Assembly (NCBI GenBank): GCA_964424795.1
Contig: CAYRKG010000020.1
Location: forward strand, 2,643 to 66,642
DNA: 64,000 nucleotides
Direction of reading: 5' to 3'
Source of the DNA: an uncultured Spirochaetota bacterium
GTDB taxonomy: Bacteria > Spirochaetota > B62-G9 > DRHN01
The first letter of the stretch is position 1, and each line of letters opens with the position of its first letter. The position numbers and the translations under genes are program-made. The notes below the pieces were generated by a model. That model was given only the letters and a program-made list of their open reading frames with translations, did no database searches and was not told the DNA's origin. This document shows positions 26,664 through 42,562 of the stretch, in pieces.

Positions 26664-27278
26664 TTACTTTCCTTTAATCAACTTTTCTGTAAGCACACTC
26701 CCCACAAAAGCGCATACATCTGTTGGTAGATAATGGTTTGCCGAGGCGTCAAATAATACCTGTGAAGAAGGCGGAAACTCTTCATCTCCACCCCAGTAAA
26801 CTGCTATTAAATAAAATCTTGGCAGAGCCTGAAAAGAAAAAGATAGATCTCCAAAGTTTTCAGAAACTCCCCCTAAGGAAAGAGCTGAGCTTTTAAATGC
26901 CTTCAAATCATTCTTGAATGCTCTTACAAGCCTGTTTCCTGTATATCCCTGATATGCATGCTTATAGAAGCCACCATTGGGGAGCTCTGATAAGGATATC
27001 CAGTGAGATTCTCTCTCCTTTCCATCTGAGAGGAAATAGTATAAAAAAACTGTCTGTATTATATCGGGTATCACTTTCTCTGTACTGGCATTTATCATCG
27101 TGAAATCTGGGAAGGCTACAATAACCTTATCCTTAAAGAAATTTAGATGAAACTCTTTTTTACCTTCTTGTGTTAAATAATATGTAGAGCCTGTATGATC
27201 TGCAAGAACAAGCGGGTCCATGCTTTTCAAATCATTACGCATCTTTGCAATAGTCTGAATCTTTATATCAATTTCCAT
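26664..27278 (-). CDS. DUF3786-domain protein
   Basis: WISLSELPNGGFYKHAYQG..., ALPRFYLIAVYWGGDEEFPPSSQVLFDASANHYLPTDV matches the conserved DUF3786 blocks as I remember them. Confidence 0.65.
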   Translation of the reverse strand: MEIDIKIQTIAKMRNDLKSMDPLVLADHTGSTYYLTQEGKKEFHLNFFKDKVIVAFPDFTMINASTEKVIPDIIQTVFLYYFLSDGKERESHWISLSELPNGGFYKHAYQGYTGNRLVRAFKNDLKAFKSSALSLGGVSENFGDLSFSFQALPRFYLIAVYWGGDEEFPPSSQVLFDASANHYLPTDVCAFVGSVLTEKLIKGK

Positions 27279-27431
27279 TAATAGAAATGATAATTTATAA
27301 TCTCTGTAACGTCAAGGTAAGGAAAGGCTTGCAATGCAGGATTTGAAGGATTTTAAGATAATGAAAAATTAATATCCACTATCTTTCAAATAGATTAGAC
27401 AGTATATTAGCAAGGAAGAGGGAGAATTTAT

Positions 27432-28550
27432 ATGTCCTTAAAAATATTTCTTATAGCAGATGTACACTTAGGAATGAAGTTCGCCTCCTATCAAGAGGTA
27501 CAGGAAAAGCTGAGTGAGGCACGGTTCAAAACACTTGAAAACTGTATAAATTTGGCGAATGAAGGGAGATGTGACCTTTTTGTTGTGGCAGGTGATCTTT
27601 TTGACAAAATATCTGTAACAAAAGCAGATATAATCCGTGCTGCAAAGATTATCTGTGATTTTCAGGGTCGTCTCGCTGCTCTCCTTCCAGGCAACCACGA
27701 TTATTATTCAACCGGAAAGAATGATATATGGACTCTGTTTCTTGAAAATGCAGGTGATAATATTCTAGTCTTAAAAGAGAGAGAGATCTACAGTTTGAAC
27801 CACTTCGACCTGGACGTAAATCTATACCCTGCAGCCTGTGACGCTAAACATTCAAAGAAAAATCATCTGGATTGGATAAAGGAATCAAAGAGAGATCAGA
27901 ATATCAAATACCACATTGGCATTGCCCACGGAAGCCTCGAAGGATTTTCACCAGATTTTAATGAGGAGTTTTTCCCAATGACACTGGAAGAACTTCTAGA
28001 ATGCAAACTTGATCTATGGCTTTTGGGACATACACATGTTCAGTATCCTGATAAAGAGGGCACTCATGATAAGATTTTTTATCCAGGTACACCTGAGCCT
28101 GATGGTTTTGACTGCAATCATGAGGGAAAGGCATGGCTTATCTGTCTGGATGATGAAAAAAGAGTCATTCCCAGATCCCTATCCACAGGAAGCTATCGCT
28201 TCTATCATGAATCAGTGGAGCTTAAAACTATGGTAGATCTTGAAAATTTGAAGAAAAGATATTCATCGCCTGAACATGCCAAAAGCCTTTTGAAGCTCAA
28301 ACTGAGAGGTAGTCTCCCAAAAGAGATATACAATGGTATTCAAGATATTGAAAAAAAAATAGAAGAGAGGCTTTTTTATCTATATCATCCAGTAGACATA
28401 AGTGAACTGACTGAAGAAATTTCTATCAAAGATATAGACAGAGAGTTTACAGAAGGATCATTCCCCCATAAACTCCTGACTGAACTTTCAGATAATAGAG
28501 ACTTTGATGGCCTACAGATCGCTTTTGAGATGATTCAAGAGGCAAAATGA
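27432..28550 (+). CDS. SbcD/Mre11-like metallophosphoesterase (YhaO-type DNA repair exonuclease)
   Basis: Calcineurin-like phosphoesterase motifs IADVHLG, VVAGDLFD, PGNHD and LGHTH. Confidence 0.8.
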   Translation: MSLKIFLIADVHLGMKFASYQEVQEKLSEARFKTLENCINLANEGRCDLFVVAGDLFDKISVTKADIIRAAKIICDFQGRLAALLPGNHDYYSTGKNDIWTLFLENAGDNILVLKEREIYSLNHFDLDVNLYPAACDAKHSKKNHLDWIKESKRDQNIKYHIGIAHGSLEGFSPDFNEEFFPMTLEELLECKLDLWLLGHTHVQYPDKEGTHDKIFYPGTPEPDGFDCNHEGKAWLICLDDEKRVIPRSLSTGSYRFYHESVELKTMVDLENLKKRYSSPEHAKSLLKLKLRGSLPKEIYNGIQDIEKKIEERLFYLYHPVDISELTEEISIKDIDREFTEGSFPHKLLTELSDNRDFDGLQIAFEMIQEAK

Positions 28551-28650
28551 TTTAAGAGGCAAGGTGATTCAAGAGGCAAGGTGATTCAAGAGGCAAGACG
28601 CTTTAAGAGGCAAGGTGATTCAAGAGGCAAGACGCTTTAAGAGGCAAGGT
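28532..28650. repeat. Tandem repeat, 7 x 17 bp (GATTCAAGAGGCAAGGT and variants), spanning the sbcD-like stop to the sbcC-like start
   Basis: Units start at 28532, 28549, 28566, 28583, 28600, 28617 and 28634. Units 4+5 equal units 6+7, giving a 34-bp higher-order repeat. Each unit carries an AAGAGG SD-like core. Confidence 0.95.
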
Positions 28651-31063
28651 GATGGTGATAATAAATCTCTTACTAAAACCTTTTGGTGCTTTAAAAAATA
28701 CAGAACTTAATTTCAAACATGGACTTAACATTATCCTCGGCTCAAATGAAGCAGGAAAAACAACGATCTTTCATGCAATTCAGAATGTACTCTTTACCGG
28801 TGTAAACCTCACTCAAACGAAGTTTCAAGCAAAGATAAAGCGCTTTGTTCCCATTGGAGGCGGAGATACAATTCATGTAGAAATAGGGCTCCTTGATCAG
28901 GATGATACATATCTACTCTGGCGGACATGGGGAGCAAAAAAGGCTCAGGAATTAACACTGCCAGATGGTTCTGTTATCTCCGATGAGAATAGAATCTCGG
29001 AAAAATTAGAGTCACTGCTTCATGCAAAGGAGGGCACTTATCGATCAATTTTAATGTCCTATCAACAGGGCCTTTCAAGAACATTGGAAGAGCTAAAGAG
29101 TAATTATAAGGAAACCGTTCAATCATTAGGTGATATTCTTCGTAAATCGATATTGGAGACCGATGGCGTTTCCATCGACCGCTTCAAAGAAATGATAGAG
29201 CAAAGGTATGAGGAATATGCAAACCACTGGGATTTTAGCAATAACTATCCTGTGAAAGGGAAACGTTATAAAAAACAGGTTGGGAAAATTCTGGATGCCT
29301 TTTACAAAAAAGAAGATATCAGATCTAAATACAGAGATGCTCTTGATTATGAAGAAGAGCTGGATCAATTAAATAAAGATATCTCGAAGCTTACTATTGA
29401 GATTGATGAAAATAAAAGATATATCGAACAGAATAGGGAAATCGTTGATGCAGCTCGAGAGAGAAAATCATTGGACAAAGATATAGAACTTCTTGATAGA
29501 GATATCCGTGAATTAAAGGAGGCCAACATAAATTGGCCCATCTATGAGAATACCATAAAGGAGCTAAAAAAATCCATTCCTGTTTTAGAAAAAAAAGAAA
29601 ATGAGCTCAAAGATGAAAAGGTTGAAGCCGAGATTGAAGAGAAAAACAAAAAGTTAAGGGAAAGGCATAAAGAGGTATCAAATAAAAAACTAGCACTCGA
29701 TGAGGCTCAGATTAAACTAAATAAAATAAGAAGGTTAACCAGAGATGAACTGGAAATCATACAAAAATCCTGTGAAAAGTTGAACACTTTAAAAACAAGA
29801 TTGGAAGCAGGGAAACTAGGACTGGAATTGATGGCAAAAAGAGATCTCTCATTCCTGATTCAGAAGGATTCAGAAACTGAATTGAAAGAGGAAGTAAAAA
29901 GGGATAAATCATTAAAAATAGAAGCTGGAGCGAGAATAAAGCTTGAAAACCAGGATCTTATTATGGAAATACTATCTGGAAGGGGTGATATTAATGAAAT
30001 AATTATAAATTTCGAGGAGACTGAAAGAGAGGTTCAGGCCCTCTTCACAAAATATGGAATAGATTCATATGAAAAAGCAAAAGAGATAAACAGGGCCTAC
30101 GAAAAGGAATTACAGAATGTGCAAACCTTAAAAAAGAGCTTTGATGATGAACTTGGAGATGATAACCTTGAAGAGCTTGTATCGAAAGCAAATGAGATAG
30201 GACCTGAAAAGAAAACAAGGCCCCTTTCAGATATCTTAAAAGATCTTGCAAATATCGATGCTGAAATAAATAGCTTAAAAGAAAAACAATCCAGTCTGCA
30301 AGAATCCATTAAGAGCTTTGAATCCTCCTATAAAAGTCACGATGAGCTTTTGAAAAGACTAACCTATTCTATTGAGCAAAAGAATAAAGTTACAGAAAAA
30401 CTAAAAAGCCTCCCCCGGCTTCCAGAAGGTATTGAAGACGCAGATACCTTTATTTCGCAATATGAAGGCATTAAAAAAGAGCTCGATGAATTAAAAGATA
30501 AAGAAAAATACCTCCTACTTAAACGTGCCCGTGTTGAGAGTGAGGCCCCGGCTCTCTCTTCTGAGGAGTATGAAAAAGAGCTTCAGGACTCTGAAGAGAG
30601 GTTTAACAGTGTTTTACAGAGGGGAGAGGCAATTTCAAGAATAAGGGATCTAAGCCACCGAATAATGAAAGAGCTAGATTCAGGTACCTATAAGGGGATA
30701 GAGAAAAAATTAGAAAACTATATTGCCATAATTACAAATAAAAGATATGAGCATGTTATGATGGAAGAAAGCCTTCCTCAGGGCTTTATTAGGGACGACG
30801 GAAAAACAGTTCCTTATGAGTTACTCTCAACAGGAACAAGGGATGTTCTTGCTTTGGCATTGCGGCTATCCATGGCCGAATATTTCTTAGAGGGTACCGA
30901 TGGCTTCCTGATGATGGATGATCCCCTGGTAAACCTTGATCCAGATCGACAGAAAAAGGCAGCAGAAGTAATAAGAGATTTTTCTAAAAGGAAACAGCTC
31001 TTACTCTTTACCTGCCAGCCATCACATGCTGAGATATTGGGTGATGCTGTAATCAACGTTTAG
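28649..31063 (+). CDS. SbcC/Rad50-like AAA ATPase (YhaN-type) with a long coiled coil
   Basis: Walker A GSNEAGKTT, a coiled-coil region of about 550 aa, signature LSTGTRDVLALALRL and Walker B GFLMMDDP at the C-terminus. Start is the GTG at 28649 or the ATG at 28652. Confidence 0.8.
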   Translation: MMVIINLLLKPFGALKNTELNFKHGLNIILGSNEAGKTTIFHAIQNVLFTGVNLTQTKFQAKIKRFVPIGGGDTIHVEIGLLDQDDTYLLWRTWGAKKAQELTLPDGSVISDENRISEKLESLLHAKEGTYRSILMSYQQGLSRTLEELKSNYKETVQSLGDILRKSILETDGVSIDRFKEMIEQRYEEYANHWDFSNNYPVKGKRYKKQVGKILDAFYKKEDIRSKYRDALDYEEELDQLNKDISKLTIEIDENKRYIEQNREIVDAARERKSLDKDIELLDRDIRELKEANINWPIYENTIKELKKSIPVLEKKENELKDEKVEAEIEEKNKKLRERHKEVSNKKLALDEAQIKLNKIRRLTRDELEIIQKSCEKLNTLKTRLEAGKLGLELMAKRDLSFLIQKDSETELKEEVKRDKSLKIEAGARIKLENQDLIMEILSGRGDINEIIINFEETEREVQALFTKYGIDSYEKAKEINRAYEKELQNVQTLKKSFDDELGDDNLEELVSKANEIGPEKKTRPLSDILKDLANIDAEINSLKEKQSSLQESIKSFESSYKSHDELLKRLTYSIEQKNKVTEKLKSLPRLPEGIEDADTFISQYEGIKKELDELKDKEKYLLLKRARVESEAPALSSEEYEKELQDSEERFNSVLQRGEAISRIRDLSHRIMKELDSGTYKGIEKKLENYIAIITNKRYEHVMMEESLPQGFIRDDGKTVPYELLSTGTRDVLALALRLSMAEYFLEGTDGFLMMDDPLVNLDPDRQKKAAEVIRDFSKRKQLLLFTCQPSHAEILGDAVINV

Positions 31064-42364: not shown

Positions 42365-42562
42365 TTGGTTTCTGGTGAATGATTCACCAATAAATTGGTG
42401 TCTTGGCGCCAATAGACTGGCGAGGATGTACCAGAACCTGCGTTCTTCGAATGTACCAAGTTCTTAAACTTGGCAAGTTCTTGAACTTGGCAAGTTCATT
42501 GGGAATTGTCTATACTTCAAAAGCTAGTAATATTTAGCCGTATACATTTTAGAACTAATTAA
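42362..42562. repeat. Palindromic intergenic element B (same family as 8004-8252 and 54685-54827)
   Basis: Left end TAATTGGTTTCTGGTGAATGATTCACCAATAAATTGG (42362-42398, containing the palindrome TGGTGAAT-g-ATTCACCA). Right end AGAACTAATTAA (42551-42562). Inside is a 2.5-copy 17-bp tandem TTCTTrAACTTGGCAAG (42461-42503). Confidence 0.5.

Follow-up and report, generated by a model that had tools for sequence, protein, structure and literature searches.

A seven-copy 17-nt tandem array between the genes of a SbcD-like nuclease and a Rad50-like ATPase in a Spirochaetota genome: a probable slippage minisatellite in place of a stop/start overlap

How does a tandem repeat come to lie exactly between the stop codon of one gene and the start codon of the next, and how is the second gene then translated? 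This question is raised by a 64,000-nt stretch of contig CAYRKG010000020.1 from an uncultured Spirochaetota bacterium (assembly GCA_964424795.1; the whole stretch is referred to as the window), in which a 17-nt unit is repeated seven times head-to-tail at positions 28532-28650, from the stop of a gene for a SbcD/Mre11-like nuclease to the start of a gene for an SMC/Rad50-like ABC ATPase. We conclude, with a probability of roughly 0.6, that the array is a lineage-specific, near-neutral minisatellite that arose in situ at this junction by replication slippage.

The seven copies are visible on direct reading, and Tandem Repeats Finder reported an array at 28528-28653 with a period of 17, 7.4 copies, 81% matches and a score of 168, the alternative being a period of 51 with a score of 193. 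Both results agree with an initial annotation made from the sequence, which had placed seven 17-bp copies at the cistron junction and whose stop, start, ATGA and mini-ORF (open reading frame) coordinates were all correct on rereading. The two-unit (34-nt) pattern AAGAGGCAAGNNGNTTNAAGAGGCAAG has six matches in the window, against none expected from 100 dinucleotide-preserving shuffles. The array pattern has no other occurrence in the 4.04-Mb genome and was absent from the GTDB representative genomes in a pattern search. AAGAGG is present in every copy (7/7), and the nuclease TGA straddles copies 1 and 2. Copies 4 to 7 consist of two identical 34-nt super-units, the doubling of which is the latest duplication in the array. 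The sequence after copy 7, GATGGTGATAATAAATC, includes a doubled GGTGAT hexamer that puts AAGGTGAT, a 7-nt complement of the anti-Shine-Dalgarno (anti-SD) sequence, immediately 5' of GTG 28655. The array is purine-rich (A 37%, G 32%); no RNA structure was predicted within it (fold z-score +0.85), it has no Rfam match to a riboswitch or other known RNA, and neither a promoter nor a terminator was found inside it.

To place the array in an evolutionary context, the junctions of the nuclease/ATPase pair were compared in 18 relatives with 42-75% protein identity. The stop and start codons overlap in all 18 orthologous junctions, by 4 nt in 12 (nine ATGA, three GTGA) and by 11 nt in six, and a tandem array is present in none of them (0/18), indicating that the array is derived and lineage-specific. 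In the nearest relative, which has 75% identity and the same divergent DUF3786 synteny, the junction ...ATCCAAGAGGTAATGAAATGATCATAAAA encodes IQEVMK and the stop, with an ATGA overlap followed by MIIKK; the junction of a second relative reads ...ATTAAGGAGGCAAGACGGTGATAATAAAAGG. The repeat unit itself encodes IQEA[K/R] and a stop, which correspond by homology to the C-termini of the relatives (IQEVRK, IKEARR and IQEVMK), and an MII... N-terminus follows, as in the relatives. Because the unit is made of the nuclease's own conserved C-terminal codons plus the start region, the array originated in situ, with no inserted foreign element. The comparison bears out two proposals of the initial annotation, namely that the ancestral genes were translationally coupled and that a module of SD sequence plus start codon was later amplified.

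These observations are consistent with the following course of events. The ancestral 17-nt junction, comprising the last nuclease codons, a GAGG SD sequence and an RTGA overlap, would have been duplicated in tandem; in that ancestor, GAGG at -8 to -5 together with the overlap would have supported termination-reinitiation coupling. The units would then have diverged slightly, and later duplications of 34 nt and 6 nt would have extended the array. Such a duplication could be tolerated, as copy 1 retains the nuclease stop and the last copy retains the ribosome-binding site (RBS) and start of the ATPase gene. A duplication across a stop/start overlap is among the few intra-operon duplications that spare both proteins, and we consider the array to be near-neutral or mildly costly. 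The coordinates of the array and of the features around it are collected in Table 1.

Table 1 Features of the array, the junction and the two genes (window coordinates)
Feature	Position	Strand	Description
Copy 1 (c1)	28532	+	GATTCAAGAGGCAAAAT
Copy 2 (c2)	28549	+	GATTTAAGAGGCAAGGT
Copy 3 (c3)	28566	+	GATTCAAGAGGCAAGGT
Copy 4 (c4)	28583	+	GATTCAAGAGGCAAGAC
Copy 5 (c5)	28600	+	GCTTTAAGAGGCAAGGT
Copy 6 (c6)		+	same sequence as c4
Copy 7 (c7)		+	same sequence as c5
Super-units c4c5 = c6c7	28583-28616 and 28617-28650	+	two 34-nt units; identity checked
Hexamer duplication GGTGAT GGTGAT	28648..28659	+	creates ATG 28652
Mini-ORF 1	28547..28555	+	ATG ATT TAA; ATG overlaps nuclease TGA (28548-28550) as ATGA
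Mini-ORF 2	28564..28584	+	MIQEAR and stop; starts 8 nt past the mini-ORF 1 stop; TGA 28582-28584 overlaps GTG 28581
Mini-ORF 3	28581..28640	+	19 codons; TAA 28638-28640, 8 nt before GTG 28649
Off-path ORF	28615..28710	+	from GTG 28615; 31 codons, out of frame, overruns the ATPase start
Metallophosphoesterase gene (SbcD/Mre11-like nuclease)	27432..28550	+	372 aa; ends IQEAK-TGA
SMC/Rad50-like ABC ATPase gene	28649..31063	+	802-804 aa by start choice (28649, 28652, 28655); coiled coil
Promoter-like site TTTCCA-18-TATAAT	27272..27301	+	in the gap 5' of the two-gene operon; consensus match only, 10/12 positions
X2 entry unitig	28556-28600		depth 5.9
X2 shared core unitig (49-mer)	28571-28619		depth 17
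X2 cycle-closure unitig	28590-28631		depth 7.9
X2 exit unitig	28624-28668		depth 8.4

An origin by slippage fits the character of the genome, which contains 41 arrays (period 9-45 nt, at least four copies), or 10.2 per Mb, compared with 3.75 per Mb in 800 kb of a complete genome from the same family; most of the 41 are intergenic, with units that form small hairpins. Among them is a second junction array, at C55:6120-6282 (L038 1621-1783), with about four copies of a 38-nt unit that begins at the ATGA overlap between an ABC ATPase gene and an ABC-2 permease gene and carries GGAGGG, ATG and the first eight permease codons (MRNIAEIY). The corresponding junction is a plain ATGA overlap in six relatives. 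At C47:8433-8744 (L039), a TPR-protein gene has its last 25 codons and stop (…DPAARKLTEKMIAKIETERAGKKK and stop) repeated four times as a 78-nt unit, leaving three non-coding pseudo-C-termini 3' of the real stop, and at C9:43244-43296 an SD region is duplicated in two copies. The array under study is thus not alone: several duplications in this repeat-prone genome straddle a gene boundary, and the set fits a filter by which duplications survive where every ORF stays intact. By a rough estimate, junction windows make up ~2% of the non-coding target, so that ~0.5 junction arrays would be expected against the two observed, which is no significant excess. No junction array was found in the 800 kb of the same-family genome.

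The nuclease stop is now separated by 98-104 nt from the candidate ATPase starts GTG 28649, ATG 28652 and GTG 28655. In Haloferax volcanii, termination-reinitiation drops to 40-60% when the distance is 13-14 nt and to about zero when it is 22-23 nt; in E. coli, a distance of 38 nt costs 80-100% of it (PMC10666635). By this published distance dependence, direct coupling should therefore be abolished at the junction. With the -4 overlap turned into a spacer of ~100 nt, too long for direct termination-reinitiation, most of the ATPase would now come from ribosomes that initiate afresh at the terminal site (GAGG and AAGGTGAT before ATG 28652 or GTG 28655), and the internal GTGs would act as decoys; a relay over three mini-ORFs, in short hops of -4, +8, -4 and +8 nt, may contribute. 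The purine-rich array RNA, with no predicted structure, fits such initiation at the terminal site. In the genome as a whole there are at least 109 overlaps of -4 between long ORFs, GAGG/GGAG is 3.7-fold enriched upstream, and G content peaks at -12 to -8. At ATG 28652, GAGG stands at -11 to -8, the genome's preferred spacing, and the resulting N-terminal length is as in homologues. When a generic 16S tail is assumed, the calculated duplex energy is -14.0 kcal/mol at GTG 28655 and -9.9 kcal/mol at ATG 28652, and the nuclease's own site gives -9.8 kcal/mol. Judged from its sequence, the terminal RBS is plausibly strong enough for independent initiation.

Several points weigh against a neutral array followed by fresh initiation. 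The translation route of the ATPase is read entirely from sequence, and the 16S gene was not found in the metagenome-assembled genome (MAG), so that the anti-SD sequence is an assumed one. The units of both junction arrays (17 and 38 nt) have a length of 3n+2, which lets a mini-ORF stop on a TGA overlapping the next start; this shared length hints weakly at selection for a relay, its chance probability being about 1 in 9. The relay path through the array under study is unbroken, with no hop longer than 8 nt. Finally, AAGAGG is intact in all seven copies although the copies have come to differ, which indicates that the array is of some age and has been tolerated meanwhile.

The strongest rival builds on these points. 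The array may be a MIRU-like ribosome relay kept by selection, in which ribosomes would reinitiate at the ATGA, pass over three mini-ORF hops and thereby preserve 1:1 synthesis of the two subunits; we regard this as possible though unlikely. The description of the array as a chain of mini-ORFs, given by the initial annotation, holds, and a continuous path leads from the nuclease TGA/ATG 28547 to GTG 28564 (+8), GTG 28581 (overlap) and GTG 28649 (+8). It is unbroken because the unit is 3n+2 nt long, so that an ORF from one RTG ends on the TGA that overlaps the next RTG, a condition for RTGA chaining that the 38-nt array also satisfies. The last 15 nt of the upstream gene are enough for termination-reinitiation in E. 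coli, and hops of up to 14 nt are partly efficient (PMC10666635); moreover, MIRUs are described as containing an ORF with a -4 nt coupling to the gene beside it (PMC12548453). Chaining, however, is automatic once an RTGA-containing unit is duplicated, and selection is not needed to explain it. Start and stop codons overlap at -4 where the nuclease gene meets c1 and between c3 and c4; the c2/c3 and c5/c6 joints keep GTGA, but the mini-ORFs entering them stop elsewhere, and two of the six internal joints (c4/c5 and c6/c7) have lost GTGA (GACGC). In the 38-nt array, the ATG of copy 2 is lost and a 61-nt stretch has no start codon; its relay is therefore broken, which argues against selection for a relay. 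In addition, losses would multiply over four successive hops, the out-of-frame ORF from GTG 28615 runs across the ATPase start, and the terminal RBS looks sufficient on its own. Fresh initiation is favoured as the main route because of the two lost GTGA joints, the interfering decoy at GTG 28615 and the broken relay of the 38-nt array.

A broader suggestion, doubtful at present, concerns duplications of RTGA overlaps with a unit length of 3n+2: each may form a self-relaying proto-MIRU module (SD sequence, start, mini-ORF and stop) that is preferentially tolerated and provides raw material for dispersed, junction-targeting repeat families, the 17-nt and 38-nt arrays being two independent cases. 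If the array is neutral, it offers a clean natural illustration of how intra-operon tandem duplications survive across stop/start overlaps with both proteins intact. If the relay operates, the locus would be a natural experiment in which a chain of short hops bypasses the loss of reinitiation above ~20 nt, and an endogenous origin for MIRU-type junction repeats would be suggested. For the organism, the array may also mean a looser stoichiometric coupling between nuclease and ATPase, a pair that is the only SbcD-like one found in the genome (93% complete).

A third explanation concerns variation in copy number. The initial annotation had proposed that copy number tunes or phase-varies the stoichiometry of the two proteins, and in its strongest form the array would be a contingency locus of the variable-number tandem-repeat type, in which frequent slippage adjusts the ATPase:nuclease ratio in the population. 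The sequence data that bear on this come from k=31 Logan contigs and unitigs of two sediment runs from one study (X1 and X2), in which the locus is present; it was found neither in an RNA run nor in a raw-read DNA run. As expected with a 49-nt exact self-match, the k=31 contigs break inside the array, and in X1 both flanks run into it. In X2, the unitigs retrace the de Bruijn path of the assembled sequence; the core is about 2-3 times as deep as the entry unitig, and closure and entry stand at a ratio of ~1.3, fitting two 34-nt super-units as assembled. Points that would suit a slippage-prone locus are the perfect sub-tracts that persist in the array (at 28554-28597 the 17-nt unit runs for 2.6 copies, and the 34-nt unit for ~2.4), the abundance of tandem arrays in the genome, and a core depth of 17, slightly more than twice the 5.9-8.4 of the unique joints. 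Nevertheless, the array lies outside both ORFs, so that no copy number switches a frame; its units are imperfect, which lowers slippage; and the X2 closure:entry ratio fits one fixed allele. No alternative joints or indels occur in either run, although ~6-8x coverage and k=31 contigs make this a weak test. A contingency locus is accordingly improbable, and the proposed tuning of stoichiometry by copy number is unsupported. Known phase-variable contingency loci have a reading frame or a promoter spacing that is turned on or off as the copy number changes, whereas this array sits between a stop and a start with no promoter-like site overlapping it.

Searches for a close strain in which copy number could be compared gave none: the exact protein is not on record, the nearest match in a 5.8-billion-protein collection is 75% identical, and the JGI metagenomes contain no match above 55% identity. 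A fragment in a mangrove metagenome run (X3) is ~96% identical to the 5' region of the ATPase gene (window 28688-28836) and ends short of the junction; it indicates a close relative in that sample. In X2, a minor 45-nt unitig of depth 2 departs from the array exit (window 28624-28668) at four positions and may come from a second strain whose last copy or start region is a variant one.

An assembly artefact, with a collapsed or expanded repeat over what is truly a plain overlap, is very improbable. The MAG, which comes from a sediment metagenome, is a short-read assembly of 99 contigs (4.04 Mb), and the k=31 contigs end within the array. Unitigs from two samples, however, contain every distinct inter-copy joint, among them the variant joints c1/c2 and c4/c5 and the exit into the ATPase gene, at a depth like that of the flanks, and looping of an assembler cannot yield diverged copies. 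An error is possible only in the number of 34-nt super-units, which is two or possibly more. The artefact was therefore rejected on the strength of independent unitigs from two runs and the divergence of the copies. Least credible of all is a role in protein binding at the DNA level, with the direct repeats serving as iterons or as an operator for a DNA-binding protein. Seven copies of 17 bp do give an iteron-like geometry, but the unit is simply the C-terminal codons of a gene and a start region, the operon has EamA, DUF3786 and HtrA-type genes around it and no gene for a replication initiator close by, the array is missing from all relatives examined, and no promoter-like site overlaps it.

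The array, read as a slippage minisatellite, can be set beside several known systems. MIRUs, the mycobacterial interspersed repetitive units of the MIRU-VNTR loci, form a family of junction repeats with units much longer than 17 nt, at tens of bp, and the senX3-regX3 locus is their classic example. The likeness is that tandem units lie exactly between co-oriented genes of an operon, here in place of the stop/start overlap, and that a short ORF with a -4 nt coupling to its neighbour may lie within a unit, with minimal effect on downstream translation (PMC12548453). The difference is that MIRUs are dispersed over many loci and apparently mobile, whereas the 17-nt unit is unique in its genome, home-made from the conserved C-terminal codons of a host gene and arisen in situ. 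The ancestral junction, with ATGA/GTGA and an upstream GAGG, is a textbook case of coupling by 4-nt overlap (Huber et al. 2019, PMC6728339; 2023, PMC10666635), whereas ~100 nt of spacer now stand where the overlap was. Such overlaps are enriched among genes for the subunits of heteromeric complexes (PMC6728339; PMC10666635), and by analogy with Mre11-Rad50/SbcCD, the nuclease/ATPase pair plausibly encodes subunits of such a complex. Leader-cistron elements of the bicistronic-design type (PMC12548453) share with the array a short upstream ORF that ends on the start of the gene and carries the SD sequence of that gene within its coding sequence; those elements are engineered and single-copy, whereas the array would be a natural, multi-copy counterpart.

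The short tandem direct repeats of Borgs (Schoelmerich et al. 2023, PMC9879509) resemble the array in their genome-specific abundance, in that some begin inside an ORF's end, and in that most intergenic units are not multiples of three. They are essentially perfect, contain 48% A and belong to archaeal extrachromosomal elements of Methanoperedens, in contrast to the 81% matches, 37% A and chromosome-like spirochaete contig found here. The host genome is bacterial, as it contains a transfer-messenger RNA (168 bits) and five flagellin genes, and genomes of the same family are named Spirochaetota. A Borg-type repeat was rejected on the grounds of imperfect units, a composition that is not A-rich and a bacterial host.

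The two genes flanking the array had been named SbcD-like and SbcC-like. These names hold at the level of superfamilies: the nuclease matches Pfam Metallophos (E = 7e-15; calcineurin-like), and the ATPase matches AAA_27 and SMC_N, with N- and C-terminal head halves that match PDB Rad50 head domains (E ~1e-11) and a long, charged middle region. The curated cut-offs for SbcD, Mre11 and Rad50 were missed. The nuclease scores 37.3 bits against TIGR00619 sbcd, below the cut-off of 77.65 bits, and lies far under those of the Mre11 equivalog models; the ATPase scores are likewise far beneath those of the Rad50 equivalog models, and no CxxC zinc hook motif occurs anywhere in its sequence. The pair therefore resembles SbcCD/Mre11-Rad50 in combining a Metallophos nuclease with Rad50-type split heads, and differs from it in sub-cut-off scores and in the hookless ATPase. 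In a comparison with known defence systems, the ATPase gave just weak generic ATPase matches to LmuB, AriA and PtuA, and the nuclease gave nothing usable. The pair is the sole SbcD-like locus found in the MAG. The nuclease aligns to its relatives over the full length. The family is widespread, a threshold of E < 1e-30 giving 2332 hits, and it occurs in Spirochaetota, Methanosarcinales, Balneolaceae, Nitrospirae and Desulfobacterota. Members are 42-62% identical across Spirochaetota, Methanosarcinales, Balneolaceae and others, a cross-phylum sharing suggestive of horizontal transfer. Next to the pair, a divergent DUF3786 gene is conserved (window 27432-31063 and 26664-27278).

Other repeats of the genome are of different kinds. 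Many intergenic arrays consist of 5-11 copies of hairpin units of 13-22 nt, such as CACTGAAAGTGCTTGAG or AGCATCTCGAGAGATA, and usually lie 30-200 nt from gene ends; examples are C4:115979-116163, C27:36424-36584, C24:7685-7827, C43:6795-6913 and, in the window, 42457-42497. Similar arrays occur in the same-family genome G006. A dispersed family of arrays with 4-8 copies of a 34-36-nt unit, TGAGGCCGAAGGCCTCAATATTGAGCGAAAGCGACG, which contains a GC-rich hairpin, is found at no fewer than six loci (C8:7150-7391, C12:29708-29878, C13:83119-83395, C14:68773-68913, C45:30743-30912 and C81:9763-9901). The tandem-repeat output also contains CRISPR arrays with the 37-nt repeat GTTTCAATCCTTGTTTTAGTGGAAGCTGCTTTTAAAT, at C23:232-3375 and C48:33232-36522.

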